Assembly (NCBI GenBank): GCA_000004695.1 | Contig: CM000153.2 | Location: 4,800,001 to 4,864,000, forward strand | Source: Dictyostelium discoideum | Taxonomy: Eukaryota | Direction: 5' to 3' | DNA length: 64,000 nucleotides | In this document: piece after piece, positions 14,848 to 61,861 of the stretch | How the letters are laid out: every line of letters starts with the position of its first letter | How positions within the stretch are numbered: the first letter of the stretch is position 1 | Program-made: the position numbers and the translations under genes | The notes under the pieces: model-generated | Seen by the model: only the letters and a program-made list of their open reading frames with translations | Databases searched by the model: none | What the model was told of the DNA's origin: nothing

Positions 14848-16796
14848 TTACAATTTAGATTGAATATAATTATCTTTAGTGAAAGGACCACCAACTTGGT
14901 TACAAATATTTTCATAGAGATCACCATCCTCCATACCTAAAGGTGAATTCATTAAGTATTCTTCATTACCAAAACCTTTAACTAAAAGCATAGCTTGTTG
15001 AGAGAGATCAGAACATAATTGACCGATTAATTTGATGATAGCTTTAGCTTTACCTTTCTTTAAGTAGTTACTATTTCTAAAGAATTCGAAATCCTCTCTA
15101 ATGATGTAAAGACCATAGAGTTGGCAAAGTTTCTTTAGGATGGAAGCCAATTCGAGATCCTTTTCAGATTGAATTTTTTCAATAAACTTTTGAAGGATGA
15201 TAGTTTCAGTGTGAGCTTTAGCCAAATGAATTAAAATCTCTAAAGATTGATTCCATGCTGTGAATGATTCTTTTGATTTTTTATAATTCTTACTAACGGT
15301 TTGAGCAGATTGAATTAAAAGTTTTGAAGATCTAAATTCCATGCAATCCAAAAGGAATTGGAAAGAGAGTAAATGGTTGTCATCACTACGCATGGTGGTG
15401 ATTGGGTTCATGCCGCTGAGGAGGAGACTGGTGTTTTTGCCCAAATATTTCAATGTGCCAGTGAACTTGTTTCCACTGTACTCCTTCTTGAATTGTGTGA
15501 GTAAATCCTTGGCAACCTGTTGGAGCAATAGTGTGTTATCACCCTCGAATGTTCTACCTACATCGATTGCGGCCACCAATTTACCCAAACGTGAATAGCC
15601 GCCATAACCATGACCGCCACATAATCTTCTCAATTCCATTAGAGACACAGTGGTGAATTGTGAAGTGATTGCTTTGAGACCCGATGCCAATACATGGATT
15701 TCCGCCTCATCAGTTCTCTCTTGGAATCTCTTACCCAAATAGATTTTAATAGCATCGAATGCATAGGTAGATGCAATCATTGGCATGATGGTGAGTTGAT
15801 GTGTTGGGTATGAAAGAATTGGTATCTCTGGTCCTGTTGAGGTTGGTCCGAATTGTAATCTTTTACATGCATAACGGGTGGCAATTATCAAACCAGACTT
15901 TAAAGTACGAGTTGACCCAAAACTAATGGTGATTCTACCAGTGATCATTTGAGCTAAAATATTTGCAAAACGTCTTGATGGATTCTTAATTGGTGATGAG
16001 TAAATTCCATTCTCTACAGACCCAAAACGATCTAATAAATTTGATGCTGGAATTCTAACATTATCAAATTGAATCCAACCATTATCAACACCATGCAAAC
16101 CAAACTTTGAGCCTACATCACCAATTTTCACACCTGGAAGTAAATCTACTCCATTGGATTTACGAATTGGTACTAAAAAACAATGAACCTCATGATCTTT
16201 ACCATCATCCATTATCAATCTTGCAAATACCGATGAAATCTGTGCATGGCCAGCATTACCAATCCACCATTTAGTCGAAGTTCTATAAGGTGTTTGAATT
16301 ATAAATTCATCGGTCTTTGGATCATAAGTAGCAGTAGTCTCTAATGATCTAACATTACTACCATGTCCTAATTCTGTCATTGCAAAACATCCTAATAATC
16401 TTCCTGATTGAATATCTGGTAATAGTTTATGATGTCTCTCTGTTCCTAAATTAAATACTGCGGCACCAAATAAAAAATTATTTACAATTAATTTTGTCAT
16501 TAAACCTATATTTAAAATACAAATATAATTATAAAAATAAATATTAGTATAAACTATTCTCCTCCCAATTTAGAATTAGGATATGTTTTTTATTACTTAC
16601 TTGCATCATCAAATTGTGATACTATATCAATAAATGCTAAAATTTTACTTGGATCATCACGAAGATCTGAAATTTGTATTAAGCCTTTTTCAAAAACACC
16701 ACGAGTAATTTCTAAAACTTGTTTTAATACCAACACTCTATTAGCCTCTTTTGTCATATCCAATTCTTTTACTTTAAAAACTTCACTAGTTGACAT
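14848..16796 (-). CDS. Peroxisomal acyl-CoA oxidase; exons 16601..16796 and 14848..16505
   Basis: First in-frame ATG at 16796 (MSTSEVFKVKELDMTKEANRVLVLKQVLEITRGVFEKGL...). Donor GTAAGT at 16600-16599; acceptor ATATAG; a+gt=Ser. Exon 2 contains ...CFAMTELGHGSNVRSLETTATYDPKTDEFIIQTPYRTSTKWWIGN...GDNTLLLQQVAK... and ends in -SKL* (PTS1). LETTATYDP and the overall layout match ACOX1/ACX enzymes. Confidence 0.8.
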
Positions 16797-19000: not shown

Positions 19001-20247
19001 GGAAAAAGTTTTAGAAATAATTCAAAAGGAACCAAATAGTATAAATTCAGTAGATTCATTAAATTGGACACCTTTACATGTTGCTGTTTCAAATAAATCA
19101 ATTGAAGTTGTTACTTTATTATTAGAAAGAAATATTGAAATTTCAATTAAAAGTTTGTATTGTACAATTATAATTAATTCTTTTTTTTTTATATTTTTTT
19201 TTTAATTTTTTTTTTAATTATTAACTTTTTTTTTTTTTTTTTTATAATTTTTAAATAATAAAGGATATACAGCATTTCATATTGCAGCATGTAATGGTGA
19301 TTTAAATATAATTGAAAAGATGATTACAATGAATAGAGTGCCAAATGGTAATATATTATCAAATGATATGGAGACAAGTTTATTTTTATCAATTACAAAT
19401 AATCATTTTGAAATTTCAGAAAAGATAATGGACTATTATCAAAGTAGTATGAATAGTAATGAATTTAAAAAGATGATTGATCAATTTAATGTCCATGGTG
19501 TATCACCATTGATAATGTCAGTATTAAGAAAGAATTTAAAGATGATAAAGAAATTGATTGAAGAGGGTGATGCAGATATCAATAGTTTTAAAAAGGATAA
19601 TTCAACATCACTACATTGTGCAGCAATAATCGATTTCACCGAAGCAATTGAGTATCTATTAGATATTGGTGGTATTGAACTAATGAATTCAATTAATAGA
19701 TATGGTAATTCACCAATTCATGAAGCTGCAATTAAAGGTAACTTTAAATCAATTCAAACTTTTATAAATCAATTAAAAAAGATAATAATTAAAAATAATT
19801 GTAGTGATGGTGATAGTGATAAAGATAAATTAAATTTATTATTATTGGAAATTATTGATAAAAAAGATAAAGATGGTTCAACACCGTTACATTTATGTTG
19901 TAATTGTGTAAATTCTGATAATATTGAAAATAATTTAAAATCATGTAAAGTTTTAATTGAAGAAGGTGGTGTTCAAGTAAATGGTATCGATAGTGGTAAT
20001 GCAACAGCTTTGCATATATTAGCATGTGTTGGTGAAGATAAATCATTACCATTGGTTAAATATTTCCTTAGTATTGGTTCTGATCCAACAATTGAAAATA
20101 AATATGGGTGGACACCAATTCATCAAGCTTATAATAATAAAAATATTCAAATTTATCAATTACTTTTAGATCATTTAAAATTAACAAATTCAACATATAA
20201 ATTAGATATTGAAAAGAAAAGAGTATTTCAATCATCATCAACATCAA

Positions 20248-20304
<57 letters not shown>

Positions 20305-21260
20305 TATTATTAAATAAAGAAGAATTAAAATTAAAAGGAATTGAAAGATTAAAAAATGTAATTAATGGAATTAAAAAAGGTGAATTTAAAAATGTAATTG
20401 TATTAAGTGGTGCAGGTATAAGTGCCAATGCAGGTATACCACCATATAGAACTAAAGATGGATTGTTGGCAAAGAATAAACAATTTTCATTCTCAATGGA
20501 GATATTAGAGAAACATCCAGATGTATTTTATCAAGCGATAAGAGATCACTTTTATCCCATTATTAAAGCATCAAATGATAATGATCGTGATGATGGTATT
20601 AGTGCAGGTATTAAATCAACGAAATCCCATTATTTCATTAATGATTTAAATGAAAAGTATGGATGTTTATTAAGAAATTATACTCAAAATGTTGACCCTT
20701 TACAAGAGAGAACAGGCACTCCTACCGATAAGATCATTCATGCTCATGGTTCATTCGATCAATGGTATTGTACAGTTTGTCAAAAACAATACACTGATAA
20801 GAGTGATAGAATTTGGAGAGAAATTGGTAGAGGTGGTTTACCATTTTGTACGGAACCTGAATGCAGACATGTCATCAGACCAAATGTTGTGTTCTTTGGT
20901 GAACCACTCTCTCAAGACTTTAGAGTAAATACAATCACAGATTTTAGAAAAGCTGATCTATTAATTGTAATGGGTACAAGTTTAATAGTTTATCCATTCG
21001 CTTCACTTGTTAATGATGTTGCTTCTGATGTTCCAAGATTACTATTCAATTTCGAATCAACTGGTCCATTTGTAAATACAATGGATTTAGAAAGAAAGGA
21101 AAAATTAAAACAACAACAAGAAAATGAAAGTGGTGAATCATCAAATGATAATGATAATAATGAATTAATAGTTGAAGCAAGAGGTAATAGAGATATAGTA
21201 ATTTTAGGTGATTGTGATAAAGGTGTTGATTATTTCAATACTCTATTTAATTCATTTTAA
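18681..21260 (+). CDS. Sir2-family NAD-dependent protein deacetylase with N-terminal ankyrin repeats; exons 18681..18869, 19002..19152, 19264..21260
   Basis: ATG at 18681. Both donors are GTTTGT (18870 and 19153); acceptors are AAATTAG and AATAAAG. Ankyrin repeats (NWTPLHVAVSNKSIEVVTLLLERN, RYTAFHIAACNGDLNIIEKMI, GNSPIHEAAIKGN, GSTPLHLCC, GWTPIHQAY) are followed by the sirtuin core GAGISANAGIPPYR...TQNVDPLQERTG...HGSF...C..C...C..C...VVFFGE...GTSLIVYPF. The protein has a poly-Ser run of about 27 residues. Confidence 0.75.
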
Positions 21261-28904: not shown

Positions 28905-31900
28905 TTAATGTTTGATTAAAGATCTTAAATATTGAGAGTTTTGAGTACCAGTTTCATCAATTAACCAATTGAATAAACTATTTTCATTTTGAGCCAATAT
29001 TGATGGTTTATTAAATTCGACGATTGAACCAGAATCTAAAACCATAATTCTATCACTTTCAACAATGGTGTTTAGTCTATGAGCGATTGTTAAAATGATT
29101 GCATCCTTAAACTTTTCACGAATAATTCTTTGAATTAATTCATCACTTAGAGAATCGACACTTGCTGTTGCTTCGTCGCATACTAAAATTTTAGGTTTCT
29201 TTAATAATGCACGACCAAGACCAATGAGTTGTTTTTGACCTTGTGACCAATTATCATTAACCCTAAGATCTAAACCCTCATCAGCGACCGATACCTTTTT
29301 AACATGTTCATATAACTGAATCTCTTTTAGGACATCCCATAACTCTGAATCTGTATGCTCTGATAAACTATCTAAATTACTTCTGAGAGTACCAGTGAAC
29401 ATTACTGGTTCTTGAGGGATAATAGCCAATTGACTACGTAAATCTTTTAAACCAATCTTTGATATATCAAGGCCATCAATGATAATTCTACCACTTGATA
29501 ACTCTACGATACGAAACAATGCCAACAATAAACTACTCTTACCACTACCTGTTCTACCACAAATTCCAATCTTTTCACCTGCTTTAATTTCAAATGAAAT
29601 ACCTTTCAATACTGCAGGTAAACCTTGACGATAACTCATTACAACATTTTCGAAAATGATGGGTGGAGTATGATTTGAATTTGTAAGTGATGGCCAACCC
29701 ATTGGTGGTCTATTTGATTCAATGATTTGATCGGGTTCCTGTGGTACATTTTCAGTGTAATAGCTAATTCTTTCGATAGAGTTCATTTTAGTTTCTAATT
29801 CTGCCAATTGTTGAGTTGCTTTATTTAAATTGGTTGTAAGACTAAGTGTATAACTAATTGATAAACCTACACTTGCAATTGCAATACTTGAACGATCGAC
29901 CGTAATAAAAATACAACTAAGGAGTGTAATTAAATTACCAAGTACACTTAAACGTAAACCTAACCATTGATTCATTGCTTGTAATGTTAAATAACATTTA
30001 TTATTATCATCCAACAATGCTTGATTCTTTAAAACATTTTCACCCATTTTTCTAAACGCTCTTAAAGTGATCACACCATTCAATGTCTCTGCAAAATGTG
30101 AGAAAATTGGTGATCTAGTAATTGATTCGATTCTTTGAATTTGAATTGAAGTTCTTCTATAAAAGTATTGAATAAAGTAGAATAAAATTATAATTGGTGT
30201 CATTGGTAATAATAACCAAGGTGTTGCTATCGATATGATTACTAAAATCGCTATACAATTGGTTGAAAAATTTAAAAATTGATTTAAAGAATTTGTTAAC
30301 AACATATCCACAATATCGGTATCTCTTGTAAATCTATTTAAAATACGTCCCAATGGTACAGTATCAAAGAACCACATTGGTGCTCTAAGAATTGACCAAA
30401 ATAATCTCTTATGAATTTCTGTTGTTGCTCTAATTGAATATTCAAAGAATACAATTGTACGAACAATAATTAATAAAACTGTAAGTACACCAATTGCAAT
30501 AAATACTCCAAGAAATTCACCTGCATTTTCAATATCACCATCTTCATTTATATTTAAACTACTTAAACTATCAATAATATAACTACTACTACTACTAATA
30601 CTATTACTACTACTACTATTATTATTATTAATACCTGTTGATGTATGTTTTGATGACCAATTACTTAACCACCAATTTGTAAATGTTGAAGTTGAAGTAT
30701 CAATACAATAACCAAGTAGTGCAATTAAAAATAAGAAACCACCACCAGCAGTTACATAATACATATAATGTTTAAAAGATACCGAACCTTCTTCTCTTTC
30801 TTCGATTGTTGTTAATTTACCATCGTAAAGATCATTGTTGTTTTCTTTTGATTTTATCATTTCATCATCAACGATTTCATCACTATCTTTATCACTATCA
30901 CCAGCCATGTGAGCATATTGTTTTAAAAGTTCGCTGAATAAACTACTATTACCATAAGCAGAATTGATTGTTGAAATTATATTTTCAAAGGTATCATATT
31001 GTTCGACTTCACCACCAGTTTTCAATATTAAAGTTTGAGTTGAATATGGACAATAGTTTAACTGATTCGTTGCTAATACTACTATTTTCTCCTTTAGAAT
31101 ACCTTTGATACAATTATAGAAAAGGTGTTTACCAACATGTGCATCGACAGCTGATAAAATATCATCTAAAATATAGATATCTGAATCAGAGTAAACTGCA
31201 CGTGCAATTGCGACACGTTGTTTTTGACCACCAGATAAATTAATACCACGTTCACCAATCTCAATAAGATCACCTTGTGGGAATAATGCAAGATCGGGTA
31301 AAAGTGCACAACAATTCAATACCATTTCATATCTCTCCTTATTATACTCTTTACCAAATAGAATATTATCCTTTAACGATGCATTCATAATCCATGCACT
31401 CTGTGAAACATATGCAATACTACCAACCACTCTTAAAGATCCATTATTCTCTAATTCCATCTCACCTAACAATGCTTGACAAAATGATGATTTACCACTA
31501 CCAACTGGTCCGATTACCATTAATAATGATCCTTTTTCTTTAACTTGACAACTTGTATTTTTTAATGAAAATGATACTTGAACTTCTTTTTTTTCATTAT
31601 TACTATTATTGCCACTAGGTGAACTTTTATCATTACTTGGTGTTGTTCTTGGTGGTGGTGGATTAGTTTGAGGTTTAATTGCCCAAGAAAAAGTAGTATT
31701 ATCCATATAAATCCCAATATCAGTTTGTTGTTGTTTTTGTTGATCACAAACATTAACATTAATTTCATTATTTTTATCATCACCTTGATTAATTTCATCC
31801 ATATTTAAAAAATTAACAACACGTTCAATTGAAACCTTAAATTGAATGTAAATATTATAACCATATGGTAAGAAAGTGAATGGAACACGAATAATATTTA

Positions 31901-32072
31901 AATATGCAACAGCTGCAAATATTTTATCCGCTGGTAATTTACTATTAACTAAATAATAAACTGTAAACATAAATATTGAAATAATTGTTGGAATTGATTG
32001 AACAACAACAATTAAACTATATCTAAATCTAACAAATTGTGTTAAAAATTTAATTTCTTCACCACGTTTTGC

Positions 32073-35532: not shown

Positions 35533-38500
35533 ATGAAAAACCAAATAATATTTTATTTTTTGATTTTATTATTTTCAACATTTTATATTTCATTTTCTAA
35601 TTCCCAAACCTTACAAGAATATAATTGTTTAGCCAATATTTTTGCCAAATTTAATTTATCAAATGCTTACCCAAAAAATGCAACTGGTGGACATACAAAT
35701 ATTTGTTCAAGTCCTGGTATTACATGTTCTAGTGGCACTGTTTTGTAAGTTTTATAAAACAAATTTTAAATTATTAATAAAATTGATATTAACAAATTTT
35801 GAATTATTATTTTTTTATTTTTTTTATTTTTATTTTTTTTTTAAATTATAGGGGAATAGAAATTACAGCTAATTTAGAATATCCACCTCCAAATGCGGTT
35901 CTTACACCAAACGATGTATTTTGTTTACCAAATTTATATTCTCTTAAATTTGAAAAAATGAAAGTCAACACAGATTTTATTTTTACAAAGTTTGGCAATG
36001 CAAAGTCATTCACTTTGTACCAAGTGCCTAGAGGTGGAATTGATATTAATATAATTGATAGACCTTTCCCTTCATACGATAACTAGTAATTATTATTATT
36101 AAAAAAAAAAAAACAAAAAAAAAAAACAAAACAATTTTATAGCAAAACTAATATTTTTATTATAAAAAAAAAAAAAAAAAAATTTACAGTTTCATAGCAA
36201 TTGAAGAATTTAATAATACAATTTTATATTCTTCATATTTAAATAATATTAAAAATTTTTATTTTCAATTATCTTTTGTTAGATTTATTATTAACGAAGG
36301 AACCAATTTTACAAATCTTAGTTTACTTTCTTTATGGTCTCTAAATATCCCAGATTTATCATCATACAAATCACTCAATTCAGTAGTTTTAACTTTAAGA
36401 GGAGATTATGATACATCATCAGTAAGCAATTATGCTAACATTAAATCATCAAAAATCCAAATTACATCCCTAGGAGGTCCAGCAGTCCCAAGTATTATTG
36501 AAACTAATCGTATGGTAAGTTCTGTTTCAATTTACTCCCTAAAATTTACTAAACCATCTGGTATAATTGATATGTCAACAGGTTATAATCTAAGAGATCT
36601 TATATTGAATGGTGTTGGTACAGATTTTAATGTGAATGGAGAATTTCCAATTATGTTTTCAAGTACTGTTCTTTCTGTAACAGTTAATGGTGGTCCATGG
36701 AAAACTGTCCCAGCCTTTGCTAATGTTTCAAATGGAGCAATCGCAGTTAGATCTTCAGGTTTAACAGATTTACCAGTTTTTTATACTGGAAATGCAACCA
36801 TTTTAGATTTTTCTAGTAACGCTTTGACAGGCACAATAGATAGATCTTATTGTGACTCTGAATTGATTGTTTCAAATAATAAATTAACAGGAACCATCCC
36901 AACATGTTACACTTGTTATTTTGGGTTTCCAATTACTACATCATACGGATCATGGTCAAAAACAGCATTTTACAATAGATTTAGTGGTAACACATTCACA
37001 AACTATGTATCAAATCCAGGTTGTACAACATTTGCTCCTCAAGTGAGAGCAAATGATAATTTATCAGGTTTCATTATTTCTGGTAATGATATTGGGTGGG
37101 AAGGTACACCTTATAAAATTAATGGTAGTTATTCATGTCCAAACGCTCTTGGTAGAGAAAAAAGAGCGTTTAATTGTGTTATAGCAAACAATATCATAAG
37201 AGGTGTTAGATATGCCAGTATTTTAAACACATGGCATAATACAAATTATACTTTCTCAATTATTAGTAGTCCACCAGATGCAACCTCAGTTTCAATTTCA
37301 ACCAATACTCTTACCATCGATGGTACTTACTTTTCATCTTATCTTGGTCAATCAATTCAAACTGTTAAAGTTGCCACTGTTGGTTGTACCATTAGTTCAA
37401 CCGATTTCTTTAAAATCGTTTGTACCACTGCTTCTTCGATTCCATCTTCTGCCTCGGCTAGTCAATTACTCACAATCGCAACCGCAAATGAAACTAAAAA
37501 ATTCTATATTCAAACTTCAAATGGCTACAAAAATACAAAAGTTTGTCCAAACGATTGTTCCACTAATTCAAGAGGTATTTGTGATTTAAGTACTGGTGCT
37601 TGTGTTTGTAACCAAGGTTTTAGGGGTAGTGATTGTAGTGAAATTCCATGTCCAACCTTTAATTCATTAGAATGTAATGGTAGTCCAAACGTTTGTAATA
37701 CTACAACTGGTGTTTGTCAATGCTCTGGAAGAAACTTTGGTTCTGCCTGTGGTTCTATCCAATGTGTTGTTCCAAGTTGCTCAAATTTCGGTACCTGTGA
37801 CACAACAATTGGTGTTTGTAAATGTGATTCATCTCATCAAGGTGGCGATTGTTCATTACCATTAATCCAATGTCCAACTTTTAATTCACTAGCATGTAAT
37901 GGTGGTTTAAATCAATGTAATAATCAAACTGGTATTTGCTCATGTGATTCATCTCATCAAGGTAAAGATTGTTCATTACCACTAATCCAATGTCCAACTT
38001 TTAATTCATTATCATGTAATGGTGGTTCTAACCAATGTAATAATCAAACTGGTATTTGCTCATGTGATTCATCTCATCAAGGTATTGATTGTTCATTACC
38101 ATTAATCAAATGTCCAACTTTTAATTCATTATCATGTAATGGTGGCTCAAATCAATGTAATAATCAAACTGGTACTTGCTCATGTGATTCATCTCATCAA
38201 GGTATTGATTGTTCATTACCATTAATCCAATGTCCAACTTTTAATTCATTAGCATGTAATGGTGGTTTAAATCAATGTAATAATCAAACTGGTACTTGTT
38301 CATGTGATTCATCTCATCAAGGTAAAGATTGTTCATTACCATTAATCCAATGTCCAACTTTTAATTCATTAGCATGTAATGGTGGTTCAAACTCTTGTAA
38401 TAATCAAACTGGTACTTGCTCATGTGATTCATCTCATCAAGGTATTGATTGTTCATTACCATTAATCCAATGTCCAGCTGTCAATTCTTTACCATGCAAT

Positions 38501-40527
38501 GGTGGTTCAAACTCTTGTAATAATCAAACTGGTACTTGCTCATGTGATTCATCCCTTCAAGGTGGTGATTGTTCATTACCATTAATCCAATGTCCAACTT
38601 TTAATTCATTATCATGTAATGGTGGTTCAAATCAATGTAATAATCAAACTGGTATTTGCTCATGTGACTCATCCCATCAAGGTAGCGATTGTTCATTACC
38701 ATTAATCGAATGTCCAAATGTTAATTCTTTACCATGTAATGGTGGTTCAAACTCTTGTAATAATCAAACTGGTAGTTGCTCTTGTGATTCATCTCACCAA
38801 GGTATTGATTGTTCATTACCATTAATCCAATGTCCAACTTTTAATTCATTACCATGTAATGGTGGTTCAAACTCTTGTGATGATCAAACTGGTACTTGTT
38901 CATGTGATTCATCCCATCAAGGTAACGATTGTTCATTACCATTAATCCAATGTCCAACTGTCAATTCATTATCATGTAATGGTGGTTCCAATCAATGTAA
39001 TAATCAAACTGGTACTTGCTCATGTGATTCATCCCATCAAGGTGGTGATTGTTCATTACCATTAATTGAATGTTTAAATGATTGCAGTGGAAATGGTATT
39101 TGTGATACATACAAAGGAAAATGTCAATGCACTCCAGGTAAATTTATTGGTGAAGATTGTTCAATCATTTATCATTATGTTACATCAGTTAAACCATCAA
39201 CAACCAAAGGTGGATTAGCTTCATTTTATGGTGTTTTTGGTAATGTTCATGATTCATTAACTATTAAAATTGGTGGATTGGATTGTAAAATTGAAATTGA
39301 CCAAGTTTCAGATAATCAAATCGATTGTATTGCACCAGCTGGAACAGGTATTAAATCAATCAATGTAACACAAAATGGAGTAACTTATTTCAAAAATAAC
39401 TATTACCAATATCAATCAATTGAAACAGTTTTACAATGTCCAAAAGATTGTTCAGGAGCAAACAATGGTATTTGTAATACTACAACAGGTCAATGTACAT
39501 GTATTAATGGTTATGGTTCACACGATTGTAGCGAACTTTCAAATAACAACAATAATAATAGTAACGGAGGTGGTAGTGATAGTGATTCAGAACTTCCACC
39601 AACAGTTATCGTTGTTGATCCAGGAAAGACAAATATTACAAATGGAGAAACCAACTTTTTAATTTACATTAAATCAATTTCAGAAATTGATTATGAAGGA
39701 AATATTTTAAAAACTTTCCCACTTAATAATGTTTGGGAAAAAGTTAATTCAACAGATTCAAATACCTATATTTACAAACAAAAATTGGAAAACACAAATT
39801 GTATTGTTGAATCAAAGATTGAAGAAATTACAAATAAAGATGGAAAATTATTTTCATTCGCAGATGTTGATTTTAAAGTTGAAAGTGGTTCAGTTAAATT
39901 CTCAATTTCAGTTAGTAATTATACATATATTAGTAATTTAAATAATCTTCAAATTGAATTAATTTCGGAAACATCACAATTAGCTCAAGATGATAATAAT
40001 TGTAATGAAGTTGATACATCATTAGATACATCAAATTTTAATAGTGAATCAAATTTGAACTATATTAAAATTTCAAAGAATAATAAAGTACTCTCTGGTA
40101 GATTCATTAATAAAGTAGTTTCAGATGGTAAAGTTACTTTCCTCGACTCAATAGCAACAAAATCAACATCAGATTCAATTTCAATTACATTAAATTTACC
40201 ACATTGTACATCTCAATGTTTAGTTGATCCAGGTATGTTTTTTTTTTTTTTTTTTAAATTTCTAAACTAAAACCAAAGTAAAATACTAATTTTTTTATTT
40301 TTATTTTTTATTTTTATTAAAAAATAGATTTTTCTGTTTTACTTTCATCAGATTTCAAATCAAAATGTGGTGAAAAAGATGATAAGAAATCATATGTTAT
40401 TCCAGTAGCAGTTGTCTCATCAGTTGTTGGTGTAGCTTCAATTGGTGCTGCTAGTTTTATTATTTACAAAAAGAAATACATTGAAAATCCATTAAAAAAG
40501 AAATTAAGCAGAGCTTCACAAAATTAA
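35533..40527 (+). CDS. Type I membrane protein with plant-type LRRs, about 13 tenascin-type EGF-like repeats and an IPT/TIG domain; exons 35533..35744, 35852..36085, 36190..40232, 40328..40527
   Basis: ATG at 35533 with signal peptide MKNQIIFYFLILLFSTFYISFSNS. Donors GTAAGT (35745), GTAATT (36086) and GTATGT (40233); acceptors TTATAG, TTTACAG and AAAATAG; phases checked against ORF-track ends. LRR-like segments (DFSSNALTGTID, SNNKLTGTIP) precede an EGF array CPTFNSLxCNGGxNxCNNQTGxCSCDSSHQGxDCSLPLIQ repeated about 13 times. An IPT-like segment (IKIGGLDCKIEIDQVSDNQIDCIAPAGTGIKSINVTQNGV) follows. The last exon encodes a TM helix VIPVAVVSSVVGVASIGAASFIIY and a basic tail ...KKKLSRASQN*. Confidence 0.7.
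37810..39060 (+). repeat. Intragenic tandem array of 108-nt / 36-codon EGF-like repeat units, about 11 near-identical copies at DNA level
   Basis: Recurrent ...gattgttcattaccattaatccaatgtccaacttttaattcattatcatgtaatggtggttcaaatcaatgtaataatcaaactggtacttgctcatgtgattcatctcatcaaggt... with only scattered substitutions. Confidence 0.85.
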
Positions 40528-40733
40528 AACCTTAATAATAATAATAATAATAATAATAATATATAAACAAATAAAAAATTTATAAAATTATTTAATAATT
40601 TTATAAAAAAAATTATTCACTAACAACAAATTTATTTTAATATATTAATAATAATAATAATAATATTTTAATAAATTTTAAAAATTGTATTTTTAAAAAA
40701 AAAAATAATAAAATATATTTATATATTTATTTA

Positions 40734-41072
40734 TTAATTCTCTTGGTGATAATTTATATAATTTAAACAATTTAATACTGTTTTAATTTTATCCATATCT
40801 TCAACTGGTACTTGAATATCAAACTCTTTCTCTATTTTAGCATATAATTCAAATAGTTTCCCATATGGTCTTGTTTCTGCAGTATTGGTAATTAATGTTG
40901 AAAGTTCGATTTTCTCTATTTTTGTACCTAAATATTTTGCTATAATCTTTTTTAATTTTTCTTCATTTTTACTTTTATCCTTTAATAGAAAAAAAAAAAA
41001 AAATTATTAATAATTAAATATATATCAATTATATTATATATAATAAACAATAATAATTACAATTTTGCCCAT
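40734..41072 (-). CDS. Acyl carrier protein-like protein lacking the canonical phosphopantetheine serine; exons 41061..41072 and 40734..40979, about 85 aa
   Basis: 12-nt first exon ATGGGCAAAATT followed by GTAATT; 81-nt intron ending TATTAAAG. Protein MGKI/DKSKNEEKLKKIIAKYLGTKIEKIELSTLITNTAETRPYGKLFELYAKIEKEFDIQVPVEDMDKIKTVLNCLNYINYHQEN*. It parallels bacterial or mitochondrial ACP (EERVKKIIGEQLGVK...[47 protein letters not shown]), but the DSL motif reads AETRPY. Confidence 0.5.
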
Positions 41073-41267
41073 AGTTTTATATATAAAATATTTTTTTGAC
41101 TTTATTTTAAAAATAAACTAAAAAATAAAAATATTGTGTGTGTGGTTTGTTTTTTTTTTTTTTTTTTTTTTTAAATTATTTGTTTTTATTTTATATTTTT
41201 ATTTTTAATCATGTGATGAAAAATAAATAATTTTTATTTATAATTAATATTTTTTATAATTTAAAAT

Positions 41268-43802
41268 TTAATTTAAAGATTCTTCAACAAAATCATCATT
41301 TTGTGGTGATTGTGTTGAAGTTTGAACTGGTGAATCAATTTGTTGTGGTTGTTGTGATGAATCTTGTTGTTGTTGTTGTTGTTCTTCATTCTTTGGTTGT
41401 TGTTGTTGTTGTTGTTGTTGTTGTAAATTTATAGATTGTGGTGGTTGTTGTTGTTGTGGTGGTTTAGTTGAAGTTATTGATTTTGGAGAATTCATAGTAT
41501 TTGAAATTGCAGCTTCATTTCTTTTTCTAGTAACAGCTTTATTAATAGCATCTTTCATTTTTCTTAAATTATTATTAATAATTTGAGATTGAATATCAGA
41601 AGCCAATTGAGTAACTCTTTGTTGAACTGTTGTAGTGGTATCGACTAAACGAAGACGTTCTTTTATCATTTGCATTGATGGTGAATTCTCTGGTTGTTTT
41701 AAGAAATCAGCAATATCTAAAACCAACATTGGCATATGTTGAATTGATTGATTACGTTTGAAACCAATTGAGAAATATTCTAAACCTACTGTAGTTGTTA
41801 AATTTTCATCCCAATATAAAGTTTTAATAGTTTTATTTACTTGAATTACACGACCTAAAGTAATGGCTAAATCATCACCAGCATGATGACCAGAGATATC
41901 GATTTCAGTGATTGTATCATTTTTTAAGAGAGCATGAGCCAATGGTATAATGTCACCCTTTACACGACCATTATTTTGACCAGCAAAATGTAAAGTTTCC
42001 AATGGACATAAACTAAAAGATGATGGTGAAATTAATTTAACCAATGATTTAACTGCATTACCTAATGAACCACTACCAACACCACCACCACTACCACCAC
42101 TACCACCACTTGAATCACCTGTAAGTTTTGAAGTTACTTTTGAAATTGATAATTTATTCATAATATCGGTATTGATAGTGAAATTACGATTTATATAAAG
42201 ATGTTTTAATTTTGGTAGGGTAGTATGACAGAGTATATCTACCAATGTAACAATACCCTCTTCCTCTAATTCATTATCAGAAAGATTCAAACGAATTAAG
42301 TTGATAACTGATGAAAGAATTGTATAGATTGAATTTGGTGATGGACAAGTTGATGATAAATCTATATCTGCAAGATTTGGACAAATCATTGAAAGGAACA
42401 ATGAAAGATCATTAGCATTTTGTTCGAGTTGTTGTTTATTTGATGCATTGAAATTCAATTTATTAGCAGATAAATCAAGTTTTGAAATGATTCTAGTCTC
42501 TTTTGATTTTTGAATGGTTGGTGGTGGTTTAATAGCTGACCAAGTTGGTTGACAATTAGACATTTCAAATTGACGCAATGCAGTTGCCTCTGATAAAAAC
42601 AATACCATATCAGAGGCAGCATCCTCCATACGATTACCAGAGACTGAAAGGAATTTCAAGTTCTTTGAAATCCATTTATTTTGTCTAAAAGCTCTGAAAA
42701 GGTTGGAAAGACCTTGCTTACCGATATTACATTTCGATAGATTGATGGAATGAATCTCATGAGAGATCGTAGATAACCAATCGTTACAAAGGAATTGCAC
42801 ACCACGATCTTCGATTGAATTATTTGATAAATCAACTTGAGTTAAATAGTTATTGAATGCCAATGACATCCAAGTCTCTGGTGTTATCCAAGATTCTCTT
42901 GCATTGATATTAGAAAGTTGTAATCTCGATATCTTTCTATTGGTTTCCAATACCCTATTGACTGAATGCACGCCATCATTACCAATCTTACATTGAGTCG
43001 ATGGTGTTGAGTTTGCCACAGTCACCGATTCAAACCATTGATTATACTTTAATGCATCAATCATTGCTCTACCTTGTTGAGGTGTTGGTGATTCTGGCCA
43101 ATCACTTAAATTTAAATCTTTAATATTATTAGACTCAAATAAATTATCAACTTCCCAACAAATATCCTCTCTAACTTGAATACCATAAAAATCTGAACAA
43201 CAACGATATGTTCTTGAAAATCCACCACATGCTCCAATATTTAAATTATTATTATTATTTGATGTTGTTGTTGTTGTCGTATTACCATTTTTACTCTCTT
43301 GCATACCAGGGAAATTTAATGAAAACATTTTCTTTATTGCAATTGATAATTCTTGAACTTTTTCAGAATTATTAAAGTTAATTGTAATTTGATTAAATTT
43401 TAAGGTTGCCTCTTGTTCTGAACTACCTTCAGTTGTTATTTGATAATCTAATAAATCTAATATATGTGCATCGAATAATGGTTTACTACTTGATGATGTT
43501 GAAAATACATGAAATCTAAATGATGAAACTATTAATATCTTTTGTTCTTCTTGTTGTTGTTTTGATGATGAAAAGAAATTCTTTTTTTTTAATTCTGTAT
43601 ATATTCCACTAAAATAAATTTGTTTTCCTCTTAAATATTGTTCAATATTTTCTTTTTAATTTTTTAATTTTTTTTTTTTTTTTATTATTTAATTAGTATT
43701 AAAATGAAGTTCAATTTTTGTTATTATTTTTATATTTTATATACTTTTTTCACTTGGACCAAAACTGGAGTCTGTTGGAAATATTAAACGATTTTCATCC
43801 AT
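41268..43802 (-). CDS. CARMIL-like leucine-rich-repeat protein (capping protein/Arp2/3/myosin-I linker family); exons 43745..43802 and 41268..43651
   Basis: ATG at 43802 (MDENRLIFPTDSSFGPSEK). Donor GTATAT (phase 1), 93-nt intron, acceptor TTAAAAAG. The N-terminal PH-like region (KILIVSSFRFHVFSTSSSSK...LDYQITTEGSSEQEATLKFNQITINF) precedes the conserved CARMIL block ...NIGACGGFSRTYRCCSDFYGIQVREDICWEVDNLFESNNIKDLNLSDWPESPTPQQGRAMIDALKYNQWFESV. That block matches human CARMIL1 [32 protein letters not shown]...IIAALEYNQWF. LRRs follow, with a Q-rich C-terminus. It is shorter than the classical 1050-aa CARMIL. Confidence 0.65.
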
Positions 43803-53621: not shown

Positions 53622-54902
53622 TTATAAATGAACTAAATATGGTGGTTTATAAACTTTTTTCTTTGAAAATACATTTTGAAGTGGTAGACCATTTTTAAAA
53701 GGTAAAATAGAACTATTAATATTACTACCATAGATTGAATTTGATGATTCAGCTTTGACAGCATCAAAACACATTAAACAAATTCTAACCTTATTGTTCA
53801 CACCAAAACCATATAAACAAACCTTTTGATTTGAACAAGCTTCACAAAACACACCACCACAAGCTCTACAATGATGAGTTCTCCTTATGATTGTAAATGT
53901 ATTATCACAAAGATTACAATTTGTAATTGATGATTCATCTTTCCATTTTGGTAACCATAATACTTTCCATTCTTTTGGTGGATTTAATTTAAATCTATCA
54001 TTATCTTCGTCGTCTTCATCATCATAAAATTCATCATCATAATTTTGTTGTTGTTGTTCATCTAAATTCTCTTCTTGTTCATTTAAATAATTACTACTAC
54101 TATGATTACTATTGCTATTACTACTACCACTACCACTACCACTACCACTACTACTATAACTATTTCTAATATTACCAAAACTATTACTTGTATGAAATGG
54201 TAAAGAATGAATATTATTACTAATTGTTGTGAAATTATTATCATCAAAACGTTGCCATAAATGAACTGGTATTTTTAATTTAAAATTTGAGATTGAAGGA
54301 ATAGAAATGATGAAAAAATGTTTAACAGTTGATAAAAAACCTCTAGTAGTTGGAAAAACTTGGTCATCTTCAATTTTAAATGGTATTAATATTTGTAAAT
54401 TAGTTGAACATAATATCTCTTGTGATGATGATGATGATGTTGTTGTTTGATTTTTAAATAATTCTCTACAATCATAATTATGTAATAGTATTTGAGTTTG
54501 TGATACTTTAGTTTTATCAATATTATGATCACTACTATTATTTCTATAATGATATCTATGACTACCACTACTCTTTTTATTTGATTTTTGAATATTTGAA
54601 ATACGATCATTACCAATACCGCCACCATTATTATTTTTATTACTACTACCACCACTACTACTACTATTACTATTTGATAATGTTTTTATAAATGAAATTT
54701 GTTGAAATAATTCAACACGAATTGAATTAATCTTTAAATTTAATGGATTCTTTAATTGTATGAAAAATGTTGCTTTTGATCCAATATAACAATTATTCTC
54801 TCTTAAACAAATTGCCATTTCAATTGGATTTGATTTATAATTATTACTAATACCAATATTATTATTATTATTAATATTATTATTAGTTATTGTAGAGGGT
54901 TG

Positions 54903-54997
<95 letters not shown>

Positions 54998-56076
54998 TAT
55001 TACTATTTGTATTAGTACCAAATGATAACCAATTTAAATAATGAGCAAGTTTATGAGAAGTGAAATGAGTTTTATTATATAATAGATAATCTTGATATTG
55101 TTTATTAATACCTGATATCCATAATTCAGAACTTTTCATAACTTTTTGATCTTTCCATTCTCTACCTTTTGAATAATCAACTTTACAATGCACTAAATAA
55201 AATATTGATAAATAACCAATATAATTCAATGATGGTGCTAAATATTTTGGTAATTGAAATGAAAATGGGTATTCATAAACACCACTTTCAAATTCATGTA
55301 TTGGTGTTGTTAATTGTTGTGAAAATGATGATGATAATGATGATACTGATGACATCATTCCTGTTGTTGTCGTTGTTGTTGTTGATGATTTTGAATTTAA
55401 ATTTGACGATAATAAAGTTGGTGATAAAGTTGAATTTTGTGTAGAAGTTGTTGTTGGTAATAATATTGGACTATTATTCTCTGAATTTGAAATTGGTAAT
55501 GAATTTAATGATGTAGTCTCAATATTTACATTCAATGGAGGTATATTTAAATTACCACTATAAAATTTAAATGTTTGATAGGTATTATTTGAATGTTGTG
55601 CATGTTGAAATATCTTTTCATATCCACATAATTGTAATTTCACCCTCTTTATACATTGTCTCTCTGTTAATAATATATTCACCTTACCACTTATTGTTTC
55701 TCCATTTGTAAAATATGATTTATCTAAATTAATCTTTAAATTACATCTATATATATATATATATAAAATATAAAGTAGAGTAATTAGTATTATAATAATA
55801 AATAATAAATAATAATAATAGTTTTTATATATATTTATATTACATTTGACCTTTTTCTGAAAGCTCCAATGGATATTTTGAAGAAGATGAAGGTGGTGGG
55901 GGTGGAATACTTGTTGAATTTAATGTTGGTGATAATTTCTTTTGTGGTGAAATAGAGTTAAATAATGAAGACGGCTGATTACTCTCATTTTGATTACTAT
56001 TAATTAAAACATGTTGTTGTGATATTTGTATTGGTAGTGAATTATTATTATGATGATTATTTAACAAAGTCGTCAT
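53622..56076 (-). CDS. Arrestin-domain protein with C-terminal FYVE zinc finger (AdcA-like); exons 55844..56076 and 53622..55746
   Basis: ATG at 56076 (MTTLLNNHHNNN...PPPPPSSSSKYPLELSEKGQ). Donor GTAATA is phase 2; 97-nt intron; acceptor ATATAG gives at+a=Ile. Exon 2 starts CNLKINLDKSYFTNGETISGKVNILLTERQCIKRVKLQLCGYEKIF (arrestin-N-like beta strands). It ends with the FYVE signature WKVLWLPKWKDESSITNCNLCDNTFTIIRRTHHCRACGGVFCEACS...RICLMCF. There are long poly-N and poly-S tracts. Confidence 0.65.
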
Positions 56077-58447: not shown

Positions 58448-58561
58448 TTATTTTTTTTTTAAAAATGACAATTCTAAAACTAAAGTTTTTAAATTAAATT
58501 CTTCAACTGATAAAACTACATTATGACCAACTGAGAATGGAATATCTTTTGAATGATCATA

Positions 58562-58651
<90 letters not shown>

Positions 58652-61600
58652 TTTAAAAGGTTTCTTTGAATTTGAGAATTTACTAAAAGAAGCTAATGAA
58701 GAATATTTATATTTTAATAATTCAACAGTAAAAGTTTTAGCACCATAGTCAATTGATTGTACAAGACCAACTAAAATTGGTTTAAATTTTGGATTACTTG
58801 AATTTTTAATTCTTTGACTTGAAATATCTTTATTAATTGATTGAAGTACGAAATAATCAACTAATTTCGATTCAAATGCTTGTTTTAAATCTAAAGTTTT
58901 AATAACTTCATTACCAATCGATGAAATATTATTCCAATTGAAAATTGGGTAAATATCATTTTGATTTTGATATTTTTTAATTAAAATTGAAGTTAATTGA
59001 ATTTGGTTAAATAAATGTGGGAAATTTCTAAGTGGTGAAGTTGCAGCTATAAATGTATTTGTGTTTGAAATACGTTGATAAGTCATTTGGCCAAACCTTT
59101 TATAAAATCCATGAATGCCATTCTTTTTGAAGAAATCTGTTAAAACATCATCGGTTGATGATAAGAATTCGTCGACTATTTCATTACCGATTGAGTGAAA
59201 TGATTTACTGACTTTGAAATCGACGTTACCATGATTAAAAGTGACAGAGTTGTCATTATCGAAAACGACAGTCTTTTTATCATTATCGTTGATGTAAAAA
59301 CCCTGTCTTTTAACTACCAATGAATTCTTGTCATTTGGAATTCTACTGAAATTTTCTAAATTTTTATTATTCTCAATACGGAATTGTTTTCTACGATTTA
59401 ATAAATCATATGCATCATATAATAATTTTTGACCAACACTAAATGATTCAATTACAGTATCGCCATCGGACTTAATTGAATTTAATGAATCCTCAATATA
59501 CCTTGTAGCTTGACCCTTTGTTAATGATACAACATTTGTTAAATAGGTTGGATAAATCTTATAAGAATCAATTTTACCACTACCTTTCAAAAAATTCATT
59601 TCAACAGTAATTGCTGAAATTGGTCTTTCTTTTGATGCACTTGATAATGAAATTGATAAAATTAATTCTGGTGGGAATAAATGATATGTACCTTGTGGGA
59701 AATAAGTTGATTTTAAATTCATAAAACTTGTTTTATATAAAATATTATTTAAAACTGATTCCTGTTCTTCTTTTTGTACTTCTTCTTGTTGTCGTTGTTG
59801 TTGTTGTTGTTCTTGTTGTTGTTCTTGTGGTATCCAACGAGAAACATCAGCAATATGAACATATAATTTATCAAATGTATCACTACTATTAAAATCAATG
59901 CTAAATGCATCATCGACAGCGATGGTTGTTTTATTATCAAGTGCAACCACTGGTAAATTTTCATTAAATATAACTCTATTTTCACTTAATTGATCTTTAA
60001 TTTCATTTGGTTGATTTATAATTTTTTCAATATATTCAAATAATTCGGTACTCCATAACCCAAAATTTGATTTGAATATTCTATCATTTCCATCATATAA
60101 ACAGTCACTATCTTTATCAAGGAAACCAATTGATTTTAATAATTTATTTGCACCTTTTGGAGACACTTCAAATTTTAATTCTGTTAAAATCTTTCTAAAT
60201 GCTTGATCATCTGAAAATGAATTAAATGGTGATAATGCTGCAACCTTTAATAAATTTAAATAATAAACATCACCAATACTTAATTGATTCTCTTTTGAAA
60301 TTATTGATTTATTATTAATTCTATTTTTTTTTAAAATTTTAATTTCTTTTTTTAAAATATCATTTTTTTTTTCTTGATCTTCTTCTTCTTCTTCAGATTC
60401 AGCTTCATTTTCTTCATCCTCTTCAGAATATTCATCTATACTTTCCTTTTCTTCTTCTTCTTCTTCCACTTCTTCTACTTCTTCTTCATCTTTAATAAAT
60501 TCATTATAATTATCAGTTTTATTTAAACTATTTTCTGTATAAATATTTAAAAATTCTTTAAGGAAATCTTCTTCCTCTTCTTCTTCCTCTTCTTCAACTT
60601 GTTCTAAATCATCTTCTAAATCATTAAATTCATCAAGTTGTTTTGAAATATTATTTTGTTTTTCAATTAAATAATTATTGATTTTCTTTATAAAACTATC
60701 TAAAAACTCATTTGTAGTAATAAATTGGAAACCATTTTTAGCTTCTTTTGATTTAATAACATTTGTATTTGTTGAAAGATATTTAAAAGCGAAATAAATT
60801 TGTTTTTTAGTTGGTATTGATGTATTGAAAATTAATTTTGAAACTGTGTTTGAAGTAAATTCTAATTCATTTTTAAATTTTGTATTTAATGAACTTGCTG
60901 ATAAATAACTATTAAATTCATAACTTTCCTTTCTATATTGTTTTTCCAATTCAATTAATTCTGAAATTTTAATTTCACCATATCTTTTTGTGCCCCATAA
61001 ATCAACAATATCAAATTTATTAACATAAATTATATCTGTTGAATAATCGTTATCTTGATCATTATTTTCATTATTATTATTATTGTCAAATGTTTTTAAT
61101 CTTTCAACTTTAAATACTCTCTTATCAGATGACACATCTAATACAATACCAATATAAAATTTATCACCAAATGAGAACTCAATTACTGAATTAATCAAAT
61201 TATAACTACCATCATTATAATAATCATTTAATGGTTTTTTAATTTCATTTACAATTTCTTTACCAAATAATAATCCCATATGTTTTAAACTTTCATTGTT
61301 TTTTTCCAAAATATTAAATTGTTTATTTTTATTGAAAATATCGGAACTGTTTAGTTGTTGTTCTTTTTCTTGTTGAAGTTTTTGACCATTAAATTCTTTT
61401 TCAAGTTGAGTTTGTTCAAATGAATTTTCATTTAAAATTTGTAATTTTTTTTTCATATTACTAGTAACTGAATTTGGATAGAGTAATCTAATTCCCATTG
61501 GTAATCTTTCAATACTTTTAATTGATTCATTTAATTGGTTTTTCTTTTCTTGATTTTTTTTATTCATTTTCTCTCTTTCCAATTCTAATCTTTTCACTTC

Positions 61601-61861
61601 CTTTTTTCTAGCTCTATTTTCTCTTTTTTCAACATCTGTTAATTTCTTTTTATCTTCAATAGATAATGAACTTTTAATTTTTGGTAATGGTAAACTTGAT
61701 ATTCTCTTCACTGTATCATTAATTTGTTGATCATTAAATGTTTCAAAATTTTCATTATTTTTAATATAAAAACGTTTAATTTGTGTTGTTGTTGATATTG
61801 ATGTTGTTACATTATAAATTTTTAAATTATTTTTTATTAAATTTACATTAACTTTTAACAT
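58448..61861 (-). CDS. RNase II/RNB-family 3'-5' exoribonuclease, probably mitochondrial Dss1-like, 1137 aa, single exon
   Basis: ATG at 61861. The N-terminus (MLKVNVNLIKNNLKIYNVTTSISTTTQIKRFYIKNN) is basic and hydroxylated, like a presequence. RNB motifs include ...VVALDNKTTIAVDDAFSIDFN... and ...LYVHIADVSRWIP... An acidic E-rich insert and a C-terminal poly-N tract are present. Confidence 0.6.

Follow-up and report, generated by a model that had tools for sequence, protein, structure and literature searches.

A dictyostelid acyl carrier protein homologue that has lost the phosphopantetheine serine, with likely bacterial ancestry

The window, that is the whole stretch of 64,000 nucleotides analysed here from Dictyostelium discoideum, has a GC content of 21.7% and carries on its minus strand a small two-exon gene. 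Its architecture is MGKI, an 81-nt GT..AG intron and then 81 codons (Table 1). The spliced product of 85 residues, MGKIDKSKNEEKLKKIIAKYLGTKIEKIELSTLITNTAETRPYGKLFELYAKIEKEFDIQVPVEDMDKIKTVLNCLNYINYHQEN, is identical to the D. discoideum AX4 protein XP_637617.1 (DDB_G0286679, UniProt Q54LE4). The coordinates, two-exon structure and length given in a preliminary description of this DNA were exact. The coding sequence has 23% GC and a GC3 of 14%, similar to the neighbour genes.

The gene is thus already annotated but uncharacterised. Its existing labels are merely 'hypothetical protein' or 'Carrier domain-containing protein', and full-text literature searches gave no match to DDB_G0286679 or Q54LE4. 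The literature on horizontal gene transfer (HGT) of acyl carrier protein (ACP) genes in Dictyostelia holds nothing about DDB_G0286679. Sequencing error and contamination as sources of the gene are ruled out by the exact RefSeq match, the occurrence in four species, the introns and the eukaryotic neighbours.

Table 1. The ACP-like gene and other features of the window, in window positions
Feature	Position	Strand	Remarks
ACP-like gene, two exons	40734..41072	-	DDB_G0286679
Exon 1	41061..41072	-	ATGGGCAAAATT = Met-Gly-Lys-Ile
Intron, 81 nt	40980..41060	-	GTAATT...TAAAG, 6% GC
Exon 2, 246 nt, uninterrupted	40734..40979	-	codons 5-85 and TAA stop; entire ACP-like four-helix domain
Rebuilt loop/helix-II N-terminus	40857..40874	-	Thr40-Arg41-Pro42-Tyr43-Gly44-Lys45; stands where G-A-D-S-L-D is canonical (alignments)
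C-terminal motif YINYHQ	40743..40760	-	codons Tyr78-Gln83; matches enterobacterial AcpP YINGHQ
Spacer, 195 bp, upstream LRR gene stop to ATG	41073..41267	-	long A/T run; presumed promoter and 5′ UTR
(TAA)n microsatellites	40535..40562, 40648..40668		3′ intergenic region
Pure A/T homopolymer, >20 nt	41150..41173		5′ spacer
ComC-family protein	36512..40527	+	very large; convergent with the ACP-like gene
Apparent short intron of the ComC-family gene	~40270..40330	+	followed by TM-containing last exon
RNI-type LRR protein	41268..43328	-	686 aa
CAA/TTG repeat	~41340..41460		encodes C-terminal poly-Gln of the LRR protein
Acyl-CoA oxidase	14848..16500	-	Pfam
Ankyrin-repeat Sir2 deacetylase	19320..21260	+	Pfam
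ORF of 1133 aa	21747..25148		no Pfam match
ABC transporter	28905..31970	-	Pfam
Arrestin-N + FYVE protein	53622..55682	-	Pfam
RNB-domain exoribonuclease	58448..61861	-	Pfam

The LRR gene ends only 195 bp upstream of the ATG, so the promoter of the ACP-like gene must be very compact. The microsatellites and the A/T homopolymer on its two sides are typical Dictyostelium intergenic features. The convergent ComC-family protein, which is encoded beside the D. firmibasis orthologue too, combines an LRR_ComC domain and a pair of beta-sandwich domains with some 11 EGF-like repeats that are almost identical (CPTFNSL.CNGG.N.CNNQTG.CSCDSSHQG.DCSLPLI) and with a ComC supersandwich domain. None of the neighbours in the window hints at a functional link to the ACP-like gene.

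The product is a genuine ACP homologue, with similarity well past chance. A single-sequence phmmer search of all PDB chains matched residues 7-83 to Escherichia coli AcpP at an E-value of 1e-8, and a profile of four orthologues matched the same protein at 3e-17 (66 bits). The two proteins are equal in length and about 36% identical across it. Among the 29 invariant columns of the four-species family are Y78, I79, H82 and Q83 of the C-terminal motif. The earlier observation that the termini track canonical ACP, including Y-I-N-x-H-Q, agrees with all of this.

The curated family models respond less strongly. The NCBIfam AcpP models match at an E-value of 8e-11, yet with 41.6 bits against a curated cut-off of 71, below the equivalog threshold. 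The Pfam PP-binding model (PF00550) aligns solely with the C-terminal half, where its 21.2 bits barely exceed the gathering score of 20.8; a rewritten domain centre would be expected to give such a result. The profile search that the preliminary description proposed thus returned significant ACP similarity, though a borderline Pfam score. Other matches, to Pfam DUF1955 (weak) and to the NCBIfam reverse gyrase and colicin Z models, had E-values of 0.03-0.05 and were discarded as noise.

The predicted fold is that of ACP. An AF2 model made from a 46-sequence alignment is a four-helix bundle with a pLDDT of 80.7, and its helices span residues 2-17, 38-53, 59-62 and 68-80 in exon-2 numbering. The top Foldseek matches of the model are E. 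coli AcpP chains, with TM scores of 0.77-0.83 and an rmsd of about 2 Å. The Foldseek and phmmer matches in the PDB also include ACP as a structural subunit, namely in complex I, the Nfs1-ISD11 complex, MukBEF and the FtsHi motor.

Three relatives, from D. firmibasis (91% identical), D. purpureum (56%) and Polysphondylium violaceum (47%), rose clearly above the ACP background when 1.84 billion representative proteins were scanned in full with HMMER. A word-indexed search with the single protein found only the first of them. The D. firmibasis locus conserves the flanking LRR and ComC-like genes as well as the intron. Synteny is not kept beyond this closest species, and the P. violaceum and D. 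purpureum loci have ordinary eukaryotic neighbour genes. As far as detected, the family is limited to group-4 dictyostelids and P. violaceum. Its absence from groups 1-3 could come from missed annotation of so tiny a gene.

The 5′ intron is common to all four species, its 3′ boundary falling directly before a conserved Asp codon. The D. purpureum protein (XP_003293298) is flagged as partial and begins at this exon-2 Asp codon. About 70 nt upstream, at GL871351.1 5927-6003, there is an ATG followed by GTATAAT...AAATAG, as in P. violaceum. The D. purpureum gene therefore probably has a first exon of one codon.

Between D. discoideum and D. firmibasis, dS is 0.50 and dN is 0.044, giving a dN/dS of 0.089. 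Such purifying selection and the conservation in four species together mark it as a functional nuclear gene, older than the divergence of the four species. It is no relic or pseudogene, and neither a contaminant nor an error.

The site that defines an acyl carrier is lost from this selected gene. The D-S-L serine is kept in 40 of the 42 aligned relatives outside the family and in none of the four orthologues. In D. discoideum, GADSLD has become ETRPYGK with a one-residue insertion at the junction of the loop and helix II. The family motifs are TRPYGK (D. discoideum), TRPFGK (D. firmibasis), TRPWGK (D. purpureum) and IHFMGK (P. violaceum), so that Gly44 and Lys45 are invariant and Gly44 is preceded by Y, F, W or M. 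Across the four orthologues no Ser or Thr near the motif is conserved, the P. violaceum stretch being EGIHFMGK. The replacement of DSL (by AETRPY) and the loss of the phosphopantetheine (Ppant) serine were thus correctly recognised from the single sequence.

The counterpart of E. coli Ser36 depends on how it is sought. It is Pro42 by MAFFT and HMMER, and Tyr43 when the helix-II register is counted back from the invariant Phe57 (E. coli Phe50). Helix II starts at Pro42 in the AF2 model, where the motif loop is the least confident region (pLDDT of about 57 at exon-2 residues 31-40), so both the exact counterpart and its exposure are uncertain. Neither Pro42 nor Tyr43 can take phosphopantetheine. 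It is therefore well supported that the product would be unable to carry acyl groups, and it is predicted never to be holo since it has no acceptor serine.

An alternative splice or frame restoring DSL, the correction foreseen in the preliminary description, was considered and rejected. Codons 22-56 contain no GT dinucleotide and hence no splice donor near the motif, so no alternative splice can restore DSL. Moreover, exon 2 is one ORF, the other frames are filled with stops, and the orthologues agree in being without DSL.

Other ACP-like proteins without the serine came up among the metagenomic sequences. One of 99 aa on a 59.6-kb ENA contig (P0006) has LGAHPLD, with Ser replaced by Pro, and is still acidic; another (P0050) has LEAEDYD, with Ser replaced by Asp. 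A third (P0008) consists of two tandem ACP-like repeats with LGAKPAD and LKAKAAD, and two more (P0011 and P0024) contain many repeats, with ACP-like modules in alternation with repeats of the AEEAQRKAAEE type. Serine loss in ACP folds may be wider than appreciated.

A second change, beyond what was described earlier, is the loss of charge. All four family members have a net charge of +1 and a pI of 7.8-8.0, against -15 and about 4 for E. coli AcpP. Human mitochondrial ACP has a net charge of -14, likewise with a pI of about 4. The ACP of an AT-rich insect endosymbiont still has a net charge of -8, so AT-driven composition alone does not account for the change. In helix II, E. coli Asp38 corresponds to the invariant Lys45 and Glu48 to Lys or Arg, and Asp35 is lost. 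With these substitutions, the amoebal family has lost the acidic helix-II surface by which AcpS, FAS enzymes and LYR proteins recognise an ACP.

The affinity to bacterial ACPs is likewise a new feature. We ranked it by scoring the family profile against PDB chains, with organisms taken from the structure-match descriptions and the amoeba's own canonical ACP, DDB0184099, outside the comparison. E. coli AcpP stands first at 66 bits, followed by the ACPs of Pseudomonas putida (60), Vibrio harveyi (59), Aquifex (56) and Acinetobacter (49), the apicoplast ACPs (41) and the Gram-positive ACPs (38). PDB entries 2lol and 2n57, which we take to be alphaproteobacterial ACPs, scored 34-36 bits. The mitochondrial ACPs (Yarrowia ACPM1/2, NDUFAB1-alpha, SDAP1/2 and others) come last at 29 bits or less, a distance that is inflated by their fast evolution.

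The large protein scan points the same way. All 56 matches outside the family look like bacterial-type, stand-alone ACPs, and no organellar ACP is recognisable among them. The family-invariant strings NE.+.KKII.K.LG.K near the N-terminus and YI..HQ near the C-terminus are of the proteobacterial AcpP type. No bacterial donor nearer than about 37-41% identity came to light. A search of 185k prokaryotic genomes and the JGI metagenomes for a donor without the serine or for more family members found none, all matches being canonical DSL ACPs.

The top profile matches outside the family include ACPs of Donacia symbionts, which are AT-rich Enterobacteriaceae (P0064, P0069, P0070, P0074, P0079 and P0135). 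These matches probably point to no specific donor but to a gammaproteobacterial backbone whose composition is likewise rich in Lys, Ile and Asn. This composition effect calls for caution in any inference of an HGT donor.

We infer the origin from the ranking of similarity scores, not from a tree. On that basis it is fairly likely that a proteobacterial acpP was acquired horizontally by a bacterivorous ancestor, and that intron gain and full conversion to the host composition followed.

The main competitor is vertical origin, by which the gene would be a diverged non-carrier duplicate of the amoeba's own mitochondrial ACP (mACP) or of a FAS/PKS carrier domain, with the presequence lost. The intron, the host-like GC content and the eukaryotic neighbours all fit it, as does the lack of a close bacterial donor (top identity outside the family of about 37-41%), and similarity ranking can mislead for short, fast-evolving sequences. 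However, the profile scores 66 bits with E. coli AcpP and 29 or less with mitochondrial ACPs, and the scores of the two presumably alphaproteobacterial structures also speak against it. The family-invariant residues match the AcpP-specific strings EERVKKII.EQLG.K and YIN.HQ, and the best matches are stand-alone type-II ACPs, not type-I domains. We regard vertical descent as rather unlikely, while keeping it as a serious competitor.

Whatever its origin, the product has no mitochondrial presequence, judging by its N-terminal length and architecture. In all four species helix I starts no more than about 6-10 residues after Met1 and the N-termini are short, and the 195-bp upstream spacer has no ORF able to add a targeting peptide. 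This bears out the earlier expectation that a presequence is unlikely.

A canonical mitochondrial ACP, for which a search was suggested earlier, does exist in D. discoideum. DDB0184099 stands alone as an ACP, bears an import signal for mitochondria and receives its phosphopantetheine from DiAcpS. It was the only stand-alone ACP identified in the study of the phosphopantetheinyl transferases (PPTases), both of which are essential (PMC3171403). With it present, DDB_G0286679 is an extra protein and not a replacement.

Taking these results together, we moderately favour the reading that DDB_G0286679 is a functional nuclear ACP-fold gene whose product is no carrier, serving instead as a Ppant-free binding module outside mitochondria and likely descending from a bacterial AcpP. 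The binding role and the cytosolic location are the inferred parts of this reading. Its ancestor would be a type-II AcpP of the gammaproteobacterial kind, transferred horizontally before the species split, with the intron and the host base composition coming later. The Ppant serine and the acidic helix-II residues recognised by AcpS and partners have given way to the conserved hydrophobic-Gly-Lys motif, and the strongly negative charge to a nearly neutral one.

The product would then work as a small adaptor or regulatory subunit, free of the prosthetic group and extra-mitochondrial. The Y/F/W/M-Gly-Lys tip of helix II may be a built-in stand-in for the Ppant arm, by analogy with the mACP of Plasmodium, its putatively exposed aromatic or hydrophobic residue sitting at the point from which the arm would emerge in an ordinary ACP. 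In the P. falciparum protein the serine is replaced by Phe, which binds Isd11 without Ppant, and the mutation F113A abolishes the binding (PMC8547962). The remodelled helix-II face of the amoebal protein would hold a candidate partner outside the classical clients of ACP with basic patches, a partner for which no acidic ACP is needed.

A more specific form of this proposal is speculative and, to us, doubtful. By it, the AcpP captured in the group-4 ancestor would have turned into a permanently 'armed', charge-inverted cytosolic adaptor that is independent of the acyl state, the aromatic-Gly-Lys replacing the arm. Possible targets are bacterial ACP-binding proteins encountered in phagocytosis. 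If true, the trick of Plasmodium mACP would have been invented a second time, independently, from an HGT gene and outside mitochondria.

The preliminary description proposed a structural role in the manner of mitochondrial ACP, with binding to LYR proteins or complex I. The first part stands, in that the serine is lost and the protein appears to be a non-carrier without a prosthetic group. The likeness to mitochondrial ACP is not supported, in view of the missing presequence and the scores of 29 bits or less. A Ppant-free ACP binding LYR proteins (Isd11 or the LYRM of complex I), convergent with the apicomplexan mACP, would be in line with the binding of Isd11 by the Ser-less Plasmodium protein through Phe at the serine position (PMC8547962), with the Y, F, W or M that the amoebal family has there or at the adjacent position, and with the repeated use of ACP as a structural subunit in the four assemblies named above.

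We nevertheless hold this model to be improbable. A presequence is missing from all four orthologues, and mitochondrial ACPs are the least similar class. Basic LYR residues pair with an acidic ACP surface that is neutralised here (D38 to K, E48 to K or R), and this charge reversal at interface positions argues against LYR-protein binding. Moreover, D. discoideum, unlike Plasmodium, still has AcpS and a canonical mitochondrial ACP that is modified.

Still less probable is an ACP mimic or decoy that binds and titrates an ACP-recognising enzyme without being its substrate. The target might be a PPTase, part of a FAS/PKS system or an ACP-dependent protein from bacteria that are ingested or live inside the cell. 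A bacterial-type ACP ancestry within a bacterivore would suit such a function, the protein keeps the fold and many positions of the hydrophobic core, and apo-ACP is inhibitory in E. coli. But the acidic helix read by PPTases and FAS enzymes is largely erased, and the protein has neither a signal peptide nor an obvious path into the bacterial cytoplasm, nor any linked gene context.

A non-functional relic or artefact, either an ACP pseudogene in decay or an ORF that arose by chance in AT-rich DNA, might be suspected from a tiny gene with no literature, a borderline Pfam score and no defining residue, but is very improbable given the dN/dS of 0.089 at a dS of 0.50, the intact ORFs, conserved intron and 29 invariant columns in four species, and the ACP E-values of 1e-8 to 3e-17.

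Few small proteins are as conserved or as connected as ACP, and nearly all its known roles need the Ppant serine. To our knowledge, the only natural Ser-less ACPs studied are the apicomplexan mitochondrial ones, which are explained by the loss of mitochondrial fatty-acid synthesis. This kind of protein is therefore already known; what is new here is a case that would be non-mitochondrial, charge-neutral and apparently bacterial-derived, beside a canonical system. The amoebal case offers a clean natural experiment, an ACP fold without cofactor or charge, and a candidate for bacterial gene domestication in a tractable model organism, in which knockout, tagging and AP-MS are routinely done. If it is merely a minor lineage-specific adaptor, the value lies in correcting the label of Q54LE4 to 'ACP-like, not a carrier'.

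Among the known systems, the bacterial type-II AcpP shares the four-helix fold (TM of about 0.8), about 36% identity, the length and the strings EE+VKKII..LG.K and YIN.HQ with the amoebal protein. The latter differs in having no Ser36/DSL, an insertion of one residue, a net charge of +1 against -15 and the loss of D35, D38 and E48, and its gene is eukaryotic and intron-bearing. The NDUFAB1 or mitochondrial ACP has in common with the amoebal protein the fold of the superfamily and the idea of a subunit that acts structurally. In contrast to it, the amoebal protein has no presequence, no serine and no acidic character, and this is its class of lowest similarity.

The P. falciparum mACP (PMC8547962) is alike in being an unmodifiable ACP fold, conserved and under selection, whose serine site, or the position beside it, is taken by a hydrophobic or aromatic residue. 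It is, however, mitochondrial and the sole mACP of a lineage that lost the mitochondrial FASII and the PPTase, whereas the amoebal protein lacks a presequence and exists alongside a canonical, modified mACP and AcpS. The amoebal protein also differs from it in being non-acidic and nearest to bacterial AcpP.
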